Position numbers and translations under genes: made by a program
Notes under the pieces: model-generated
Database searches by the model: none
Told to the model about the DNA's origin: nothing
The model's input: only the letters and a program-made list of their open reading frames with translations
Shown: positions 29,487 through 33,713 of the stretch, piece by piece
How positions within the stretch are numbered: the stretch's first letter is position 1
Layout of the letters: every line of letters starts with the position of its first letter
From: Candidatus Hodarchaeota archaeon
GTDB lineage: Archaea; Asgardarchaeota; Lokiarchaeia; Sigyniarchaeales; SOKP01
Assembly (NCBI GenBank): GCA_048887225.1
Contig: JBHLJY010000004.1
Coordinates: 32,001 to 96,000 of the forward strand
Length of the DNA: 64,000 bases
Direction: 5' to 3'

Positions 29487-30956
29487 TTAATCTAATCCTA
29501 AGAAACCCCTCATTGATGGATATTGCTGGGCAGCCACCTCTTTGGAAATCGTCTCGGCATATTGATGTATAATACCTATAGCTATTAGAAGTCCCGTACC
29601 TGAAGTCAATGCACCTAGACCATCTGCCATAAAACTTAACAACGCTATGAGTATCCCGTTTAATATGATTAATGTAGGAATATATCTTTGAAGTATTCCT
29701 TCTATGATTTTCGCCGAACTTCGAAAGCCAGGAACCATCATCCCTGAATCTATGATCTGCTGGGCTATATCTCGGGGTGCTAGACCTGATACTTCGACCC
29801 AAATTTTCCCAAGTTTGATACATAAAAAGATAAATATAAATAAATAAATGACCGCCCGTAAAGGATCGTCCATTAATGCCTCTATCCCAAGCGGAGGCGA
29901 AAGATAATATATCAGACCTGAAGTTGGAACAAGATAGCCTCCCGTGCCGGTCCCTGTTTCTTGTCTCTCGAAAGTCCCGAATAAATCAAGCCAGAAATCG
30001 TAACCTTGACCACGTAGCCCGGACTGTGGTCCCGCTAATAATTGACCAAAAAACAATAAATTCGCATATAAAGCATTAACTAAAATAACTGGTATATTAG
30101 AGACATAGAGCAATTTCATTGGATATTTGCCTTTAAAACCTCGATAGCCTCGATAAGCTAACGGAATTTCAACTCGGGTGCCTTCAAACCACACAACAAT
30201 TACAAATATAACTAATGTGGTAATTATTCCTAATAGAGACGGTAATTGCCCTCGTATCCAAATATCATCTAAATTGGTCTCAGGATCGTCATCAAATAAA
30301 ACGTAAAAGAATGCAATAATTATGCCTCTCGGTATACGGCCTTCTCCTGGAGCTTCGATAAAACTGAAAGCGTTCCAAAATATTTGACCAGCGACTCCAG
30401 CGGCAATAAACAAAGATACACCGCTGCCAAGACCCCAACCTTTTTGAAGTAGTTCATCGAGCAATATAATTACGATTCCAGCAAATAATAATTGCATAAA
30501 AATTAACACTATGTTTTGTACTCCAAGTTCAGTTGGCGGACCAAAAGCACCTCCTATTATATATGCAACTGTATTAAACATGGTTAAAAATATCGACATG
30601 ACTTTTTGTGTCCCACTAAACATTGCCCGATCGTATGGATCGCTCATATCGACAGTGATGATTTTAGAACCAAGTAGGAGCTGCATTATAAGTCCCGCTG
30701 TAACTATAGGACCAATTCCAAGTTCCGTTAACGTCCCTCTTTGGCTTGCAAGTATAACTCTTAACCAATAAAAATAATCTGTTGAATCCTCTAGTTCTAC
30801 ACCATATAATGGAATATTTGACATAATTAAGTAAATGATAAGTACCAAAGCTGTCCAGACGAACTTCTCTTTAAAAGATACCTCTCTCTGAGGATTTCTA
30901 ATTTCTGGCATTACTTTTACAAAAGGCGTAAAAAACCGAATGAACTTTCCCGCCAT
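29487..30956 (-). CDS. secY: Preprotein translocase subunit SecY/Sec61alpha
   Basis: GTLTELGIGPIVTAG, GWGLGSGVSLFIA, YPMKLLYVSNIP, PGFRS, SGTGLL. Confidence 0.97.
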   Translation of the reverse strand: MAGKFIRFFTPFVKVMPEIRNPQREVSFKEKFVWTALVLIIYLIMSNIPLYGVELEDSTDYFYWLRVILASQRGTLTELGIGPIVTAGLIMQLLLGSKIITVDMSDPYDRAMFSGTQKVMSIFLTMFNTVAYIIGGAFGPPTELGVQNIVLIFMQLLFAGIVIILLDELLQKGWGLGSGVSLFIAAGVAGQIFWNAFSFIEAPGEGRIPRGIIIAFFYVLFDDDPETNLDDIWIRGQLPSLLGIITTLVIFVIVVWFEGTRVEIPLAYRGYRGFKGKYPMKLLYVSNIPVILVNALYANLLFFGQLLAGPQSGLRGQGYDFWLDLFGTFERQETGTGTGGYLVPTSGLIYYLSPPLGIEALMDDPLRAVIYLFIFIFLCIKLGKIWVEVSGLAPRDIAQQIIDSGMMVPGFRSSAKIIEGILQRYIPTLIILNGILIALLSFMADGLGALTSGTGLLIAIGIIHQYAETISKEVAAQQYPSMRGFLGLD

Positions 30957-33151: not shown

Positions 33152-33713
33152 TTACAAATCCTCCTTTATTTTATCATCGTATTCTCCATTATTAATTCTC
33201 TCTTGAATGATCCTAGGGTCCTCTCCTTCAACAGTTAGGCCTACAGATAAGGCGGTTCCTAATACTGTTTTAACACCAGTTTTAAATGTTTTATCTAAAA
33301 AGATGTCTTTTTTAGCATTTGCGACCGAAATTATTTGGTCAAGAGTTAAATTACCAATTTTATCCTCTCCTGGATTTGAAGAACCCTTCTCAACTCCAAC
33401 TTCTTTCAATAATAATGAAGCTGTAGAAGGAGTTTCTACAAAAATTTCAAATTGTTTTGTCTCAGGATCACACTCAATTCTCACTGGAACAGTTAATCCT
33501 TTAAACACCATTGTTTTTTCGTTTACAGCATCAATGACATCCTTAATATTGATACCCGTTGGACCTTAAGCCAATAATTCGAAATGAATTATTTACAGCC
33601 GGTCCAATTGGAGGTCCTCCTGAAGCATTAGGGGTAATTTTCGAAGTGAAAGTTTATTATACACTCCCTCCAGTCACAAGGGCCTTTACTACAACCTTTC
33701 CTTTTTTACTCAT
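33152..33713 (-). CDS. rpl11: 50S ribosomal protein uL11, split into exons 33713-33664, 33627-33595 and 33566-33152
   Basis: Joined exons = 498 nt, 165 aa: MSKKGKVVVKALVTGGSASGGPPIGPAVGPTGINIKDVIDAVNEKTMVFKGLTVPV...; the ORF track shows only the last 119 aa. Confidence 0.9.
33567..33594 (-). other. uL11 intron 2 (28 nt, strict BHB, frameshifting)
   Basis: Outer helix TTGGACC/GGTCCAA, central helix GGCT/GGCT (two G-U pairs), bulges GT^A and TA^A, inner helix AATAATTC/GAATTATT; splicing gives GCT GTA GGT (A-V-G). Confidence 0.9.
33628..33663 (-). other. uL11 intron 1 (36 nt, relaxed BHB, contains in-frame stops)
   Basis: Central helix AGGG/CCCT, bulges AG^T and AA^T, inner helix GTA/TAC; splicing gives GGG AGT GCT (G-S-A). 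Confidence 0.82.

Follow-up and report, generated by a model that had tools for sequence, protein, structure and literature searches.

The uL11 gene analysed here has a reading frame that is interrupted twice near its 5′ end, and the two inserts resemble each other. Our analysis showed that this likeness is real but modest. The most probable reading, to which we give a probability of roughly 0.6, is that both inserts are BHB mini-introns, and that their likeness reflects a family trait, a hairpin tip under purifying selection, rather than a recent copying event in this genome.

The window, that is, the whole 64-kb stretch of DNA that was analysed, is contig C4:32001-96000 of an Asgard (Promethearchaeota) MAG of 3.27 Mb with 30% GC. 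Exon and intron borders were placed by spliced protein-to-DNA alignment, and the neighbouring genes were identified with Pfam. The features are as follows, in positions of the window.

33713-33664, minus strand: uL11 exon 1, from the ATG through the second base of codon 17; product matches intronless orthologues
33663-33628, minus strand: uL11 intron 1, 36 nt, phase 2
33650-33640, minus strand: shared core of intron 1, TTCACTTCGAA, a hairpin tip with a C-G pair closing the pentaloop ACUUC
33627-33595, minus strand: uL11 micro-exon (exon 2), 33 nt
33594-33567, minus strand: uL11 intron 2, 28 nt, phase 2
33588-33578, minus strand: shared core of intron 2, TTCATTTCGAA, a hairpin tip with a C-G pair closing the pentaloop AUUUC
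33566-33152, minus strand: uL11 exon 3, stop codon included, with the L11 RNA-binding domain (Pfam PF00298, E 1e-19)
33148-32420, minus strand: uL1, downstream of uL11
32427-31519, minus strand: uL10, downstream of uL1
31432-31136, minus strand: P1, downstream of uL10
29487-30956, minus strand: SecY, next downstream of P1

uL11 is the first gene of the uL11-uL1-uL10-P1 cluster, and a genome search returned a single uL11 match in this 98% complete genome. Excision of both introns in the spliced alignment gives a uL11 of 165 aa, and the spliced motif TGGSASGGPPIGPAVGPTGINIKDV, which spans both junctions, equals that of intronless orthologues residue for residue. The micro-exon codes for part of S17, for ASGGPPIGPA and for part of V28 in the N-terminal domain of uL11. 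Its GGPPIGP is identical across 68 aligned relatives. The original prediction had described two uL11 introns with a shared core, separated by an in-frame 33-nt micro-exon with the motif GGPPIGPA. This was borne out, and its exon and intron coordinates and quoted strings proved exact. It was also right that skipping of the micro-exon would keep the frame (AG and A would join to AGA, and reading would continue in frame downstream). Intron 1 has an in-frame UAA UAA close to the start, at which unspliced RNA would stop. The uL1 gene carries its own GGAGG Shine-Dalgarno box 10 nt ahead of its ATG. SecY follows on the same strand about 180 nt past the P1 stop, and there is no spc-type cluster setting. 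No tRNA genes (ARAGORN) and no Rfam families at gathering score were found in the whole 64-kb window.

Both inserts show the archaeal BHB geometry, with 3-nt bulges on opposite strands, a 4-bp helix and symmetric cuts, which in intron 1 is relaxed. Intron 2 forms a canonical hBHBh′ motif. Its outer helix of 7 bp (UUGGACC/GGUCCAA) is built from the Gly-Pro codons GGACC/GGUCC, its central helix is GGCU/GGCU (4 bp) with the 3-nt bulges GUA and UAA, and its inner stem of 8 bp (AAUAAUUC/GAAUUAUU) carries the 5-nt loop AUUUC. The BHB fold of intron 2 has an energy of −21.5 kcal/mol, 0.2 apart from the MFE of −21.7 kcal/mol. In intron 1, the central helix pairs AGGG (33669-33666) with CCCU (33633-33630), and the bulges are AGU and AAU; the end of exon 1, AGGG-AG, supplies the exon strand of this helix and part of bulge 1. 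The inner helix GUA/UAC has 3 bp, the terminal hairpin is UUUC-[ACUUC]-GAAA, and the outer helix is displaced and lacks contiguous pairing. We class intron 1 as a relaxed BHB because of this short inner helix and displaced outer helix. When forced, its BHB fold lies 2.1 kcal/mol above the MFE.

The genome also encodes the proteins that such introns need, namely two EndA paralogues (PF01974) of about 200 aa each and an RtcB ligase (PF01139). Asgard EndA is reported to be of the broad-specificity (alpha-beta)2 type with an L1 loop (PMC5829648), and the two paralogues are presumed to be of this type. The two-subunit tRNA-splicing endonuclease would cut both introns from the uL11 pre-mRNA, and RtcB would join the exons, all three of which would be required for uL11. 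Exact matches to the spliced E1-E2 and E2-E3 junctions numbered 0 in metagenome contigs. Self-splicing introns of group I or II were considered and rejected, since the inserts measure only 28 and 36 nt, Rfam has no match in the window and no PF00078 reverse transcriptase was found in the genome.

We explored the same region in 72 related Asgard loci (L001-L072). These were fetched via the neighbouring uL1 gene, with the uL11 5′ region some 430-560 nt ahead of the uL1 match. The 51 introns found in them occupy four sites that lie inside a 50-nt stretch of coding sequence.

Site A: codon 17, phase 2, the site of window intron 1; 15 introns
Site B: codon 24, phase 2; 12 introns
Site C: codon 28, phase 2, the site of window intron 2; 6 introns
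Site D: codon 34, phase 1; 18 introns

A gene has from 0 to 3 introns, in the combinations A, B, C, D, AB, AC, AD, BD and ABD, and uL11 is uninterrupted in about 30 relatives. By site combination, the micro-exons of relatives are 21, 29, 33 or 50 nt long. The uL11 5′ region appears as an intron hot-spot, with three introns in L052 and L070; in some genes, introns A and B flank a 21-nt exon and their BHBs overlap. According to the tree of uL11+uL1+uL10, close sisters differ in the sites that are occupied. Among very close sisters, L015 has B while L013 has A and D, and L037 has B while L020 has none. Local mosaic tracts around a site were found in some pairs (L036 vs L038, L016 vs L038). Presence and absence of introns turn over fast among relatives despite the lack of a PF00078 match in the window's genome, and precise intron loss and gain may proceed by recombination between alleles instead of by a reverse transcriptase. 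Sites B and C, which are 12 nt apart, have U|A-GGU-CC as a common context and were never seen together in one gene. Judged from these sequences, this pattern could fit a register shift in repeated Gly-Pro codons, and equally a competition for the same helix partner.

The closest relative, L001 (JBHLQY010000055.1), has a uL1 that is 97% identical, and its uL11 carries the same two introns. Its record is labelled Candidatus Thorarchaeota; the labels of the remaining near relatives read Promethearchaeota, Hermodarchaeota or Odinarchaeota. Record labels are unreliable for lineage here.

Compensatory changes in the relatives support the BHB structure. Of the 51 introns, 45 have all 4 pairs of the central helix, and none has fewer than 3. 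A gapless alignment of 14 introns of 28 nt showed pairing in 94% of cells, compared with 28-47% when the partners were slid, and both sides had changed in 11 of 12 pairs. The central helix of site A covaries (AGGG/CCCU vs UGGG/CCCA or CCCG). At site C, the outer helix of L030 has GGACC...GGUCC swapped to GGUCC...GGACC, so that the helix between the two exons, which is made of Gly codons, is kept. The flanking exons also showed constraint. Third-codon positions beside a site show complete (100%) fixation only where the gene has the intron at that site, and are otherwise about 30-40% identical. At site A, for example, the fixed synonymous positions of intron-bearing genes include codons 13, 16, 17, 19 and 20 (window 33595-33690). 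Since these positions are fixed only together with the intron, the exons belong to the selected structure. On this sequence evidence, both inserts are genuine BHB introns, and we infer that they are spliced in vivo.

The tip is a C-G closing pair around the pentaloop A-N-N-U-C on an AU-rich stem. We found the pattern C-NNNUC-G in 35 of 50 distinct uL11 introns (70%), with examples from each of the four sites (A 9/15, B 10/12, C 5/6, D 11/18). As background, the pattern is present in 0.28% of 1808 random BHB-like hairpins that come from the window's genome and have 5-nt loops, and its share among random 32-mers is 2.7%. In the alignment of 28-nt introns, U19 and C20 are invariant and G21 is nearly so. 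The mean pairwise identity is 0.92 for loop U4 and 0.58 for C5, values that include some hairpins mis-anchored by the script, compared with 0.30-0.39 for loop positions 2-3. Four-fold degenerate sites of the same genes are saturated (0.34). Because U4 stays at 0.92 while these sites are saturated, the core is under selection. As the genomes are related, they do not count as independent samples, and part of the introns may postdate their hosts, which would inflate the apparent conservation; however, divergence is visible in the stems and in loop positions 2-3 of these very molecules.

We interpret the tip as a feature that selection keeps in the uL11 introns of the window's Asgard lineage, most likely because it helps a weak AU-rich BHB to fold or to be recognised. 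The original prediction had offered the core as a possible protein-binding site. Its part as a functional site agrees with the selection signal in the loop, and the binding itself is putative. We also considered the tip as a mimic of the uL11 binding site in 23S rRNA, as a sequence pairing with the start codon and as a UUCG-type tetraloop, each of which was unsupported by eye. A transposon-like target site was dropped because the 5′ exon ends are unlike between sites.

How much of this likeness exceeds chance can be estimated for the pair in the window. What the two introns share is, in structural terms, the terminal hairpin tip UUC-[AYUUC]-GAA of each; AATAA stands upstream and TTA downstream of both cores. 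The best local alignment of intron 1 with intron 2 has a score of 18. This score was reached in 60 of 5000 dinucleotide shuffles (1.2%), 86 of 5000 random genome segment pairs (1.7%) and 3 of 1500 random 28-mers with folds as good as that of intron 2 (0.2%). The likeness claimed in the original prediction thus withstood the shuffled controls (p about 0.01-0.02). The search string TTCAYTTCGAA gave another result. It has 7 copies in the genome, about 7 being the estimate from composition, and two of them sit 62 nt apart inside uL11. Among the matches listed, none of the other five copies lies in a comparably good BHB; the one that is listed, on contig C20, has a 6-bp inner helix and no outer helix. 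The search for this string in other BHB hairpins, as proposed in the original prediction, thus yielded no comparably good case among the matches listed.

Across the relatives, cross-site pairs of introns reach a score of at least 18 in 8.7% of cases, seven times more commonly than shuffled pairs (1.2%), and the best cross-site local scores are 18-21. The pair in the window stands at the 92nd percentile of cross-site pairs. The mean cross-site score is 13.1 within genomes and 12.1 between genomes, and the medians are equal. Each of the two window introns resembles introns at its own site in other genomes more than it resembles the other: intron 1 shares 68% identity with L052-A and 89% with L001-A, and intron 2 shares 80% with L006-C.

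We investigated other introns of the window's genome. Genome-wide ORF-rescue scans for mRNA introns returned mostly gene boundaries and AT-rich noise, and confirmed cases alone were used. Confirmation came from split HMM coordinates for RtcB, from the end of the Pfam match for the LsrF-like aldolase and from motif continuity for CSD, hdrB and acs. The introns are listed below by contig.

C12:16601-16631, minus strand: hdrB intron, 31 nt, AUC[AUUUA]GAU, a near-variant of the tip
C4:215764-215799, plus strand: acyl-CoA dehydrogenase intron, 36 nt, CGC[AAUUC]GCG, the exact tip motif
C2:11573-11602, minus strand: intron of a cold-shock gene (CSD), 30 nt, without the tip
C1:321212-321243, plus strand: intron of an LsrF-like aldolase, 32 nt, without the tip
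C2 about 89800-89829, plus strand: acs (acs-1) intron, 30 nt, without the tip
C13:33458-33486, plus strand: RtcB intron, 29 nt, without a uL11-type tip

As four of these six introns lack the tip, BHB splicing as such can do without it. The tip recurs among mRNA mini-introns but is neither universal nor a requirement for a BHB. The introns of hdrB, acyl-CoA dehydrogenase, CSD, the LsrF-like aldolase and acs all have A as their first base, which is also the third base of bulge 1. For acs, the frame requires excision of 30 nt, whereas a length of 28 nt is predicted from the best 4-bp helix. The uL11-type recurrent tip was absent, by eye, from the 14 tRNA introns that ARAGORN placed in this genome. 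We also ran a covariance model of the 28-nt form, which fits that geometry only and was scored on 110-150 of about 3700 candidates per genome. In 61 genomes of one family, the window's included, all matches with E ≤ 0.007 were at the uL11 junction, at most one per genome, and in the window's genome the sole match below E = 1 is intron 2.

The likeness of the two introns is best read as a kept family trait because the tip recurs at four sites and in many genomes, and also in the acyl-CoA dehydrogenase intron and, as a near-variant, in hdrB. The least probable of the other explanations is chance, by which two AT-rich hairpins would happen to have the same palindromic 11-mer. A genome of 30% GC in which this 11-mer is as frequent as expected, and a motif picked after being seen, would suit such an accident; the p-value of 0.01-0.02 for the pair does not, nor does a tip present in 70% of 50 related introns against a background of 0.3%. 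A recent local copy, as in the original prediction, would have one uL11 intron reverse-spliced from the other in this lineage. We regard this as improbable. The high percentile of the pair and the shared phase 2 are what it would produce, but cross-site pairs within a genome would then be more alike than those between genomes, and each intron would not be closest to introns of its own site in other genomes. With no enrichment of within-genome pairs and no reverse transcriptase, the recent copy is unsupported, and the same loop stands at four sites in distant genomes. Regulatory splicing was also proposed, with the micro-exon as a skippable cassette or with intron retention gating uL11 and the stalk genes. 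It is very improbable here. The 29- and 50-nt micro-exons of relatives would shift the frame that skipping preserves in the window's gene, and the exon codes for the invariant GGPPIGP. Unspliced RNA does stop at the UAA UAA of intron 1 and uL11 does lead its cluster, but uL1 has its own Shine-Dalgarno box and about 30 relatives are intronless. Selected exon skipping is unlikely because micro-exons are 21, 29 or 50 nt long in relatives and the motif is invariant; neither the conserved frame-preserving length nor the dispensable segment of a regulated cassette exon was found.

An ancient common origin is the alternative that we take most seriously, and it is possible, albeit unlikely on balance. 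A founding mini-intron would have been copied to neighbouring BHB-competent sites, by reinsertion at the RNA level or by shifted recombination between repeated GGNCC Gly-Pro codons, and the site families would be paralogues that have kept the tip. Four sites inside 50 nt, cross-site similarity above shuffled controls and a 28-nt covariance model whose matches, no more than one in each of 61 genomes with the window's included, all lie in uL11 would all be expected from such a history. So would the common context of B and C, 12 nt apart and never together. However, the similarity is confined to the 11-13-nt tip, which selection alone could explain, and the same tip occurs in acyl-CoA dehydrogenase and a near-variant in hdrB. 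No reverse transcriptase was found, and Asgard tRNA introns are reported almost never to form cross-position families (bioRxiv 10.64898/2026.10.13.758758). Purifying selection on a family-wide hairpin tip is the reading that we prefer.

Splicing inside archaeal coding sequence is documented in the searchable literature for cbf5 only, with one intron. This BHB intron, in the coding sequence of the cbf5 pre-mRNA of Crenarchaeota, is described by Yokobori et al. 2009 (PMC2738675) and in papers cited there. The uL11 introns are similar in that a tRNA-type BHB intron lies in a coding sequence, relies on the tRNA-splicing endonuclease and a ligase, and is gained and lost patchily among relatives. 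However, uL11 has two introns (up to three in relatives) within 50 nt, with micro-exons of 21-50 nt and four alternative sites, and differs from cbf5 in being a ribosomal protein gene of an Asgard host with a conserved hairpin-loop motif.

For Asgard mRNA introns, the searchable literature holds nothing, and the Asgard papers in it treat tRNA introns only (PMC11291895; bioRxiv 10.64898/2026.10.13.758758). They report that Asgard tRNA introns are short (median about 22-23 nt), sit at many non-canonical positions and have been gained repeatedly. The same enzyme system would serve both kinds. Asgard tRNA introns lie in tRNAs, and cross-position families have almost never been reported for them, whereas the uL11 introns lie in mRNA and have a loop motif common to four positions. 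Transposition of tRNA introns in Thermoproteales, as Fujishima et al. 2010 is cited in bioRxiv 10.64898/2026.10.13.758758, gave families with at least 80% identity over the whole intron in many genes. There too, related introns stand at different positions and are constrained by BHB formation. In contrast, the 28-nt form of uL11 is found in one gene only, and identity among uL11 introns is limited to the tip, so that they do not form a transposed family of the Thermoproteales type, with about 80% or more identity across the whole intron.

New in our analysis are the conserved loop, the selection signal, the constraint on exon flanks, the mosaic four-site pattern and the RtcB intron. Yeast ribosomal protein genes have 5′-biased introns, some with splicing feedback, e.g., RPS13. 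The introns of uL11 are likewise near the 5′ end; those of yeast are spliceosomal, and the comparison is an analogy.

The single-copy essential uL11 of an Asgard archaeon thus needs two predicted splicing events around a 33-nt exon, and its relatives use four alternative sites with rapid turnover. The hairpin tip is a concrete and mutable element, which makes it testable whether splicing uses signals beyond the BHB and whether introns spread by family. It is a rather doubtful but attractive extension that mini-introns with the hairpin C-[A N N U C]-G form one lineage, which would have colonised mRNAs of Loki-type Asgard archaea at the four uL11 sites, in an acyl-CoA dehydrogenase gene and, with a near-variant tip, in hdrB, and that the hairpin is kept because a dedicated factor or the endonuclease itself reads it. 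If so, there would be mRNA intron spread in archaea, with a recognition system, in the closest prokaryotic relatives of eukaryotes.

The RtcB intron deserves a separate description. It lies between PGGVGY and DINCG, with the central helix UUGG/CCAA, a stem of at least 8 bp and the loop AUAG, and it is present in four genomes (the window's, L091, L094 and L117). RtcB is uninterrupted in about 31 Asgard relatives and in 32 of 45 distant archaeal or bacterial loci, the other 13 being without a readable junction. Because the RtcB gene is split by a BHB intron, the ligase for splicing would itself need splicing, which points to a self-dependent splicing circuit.
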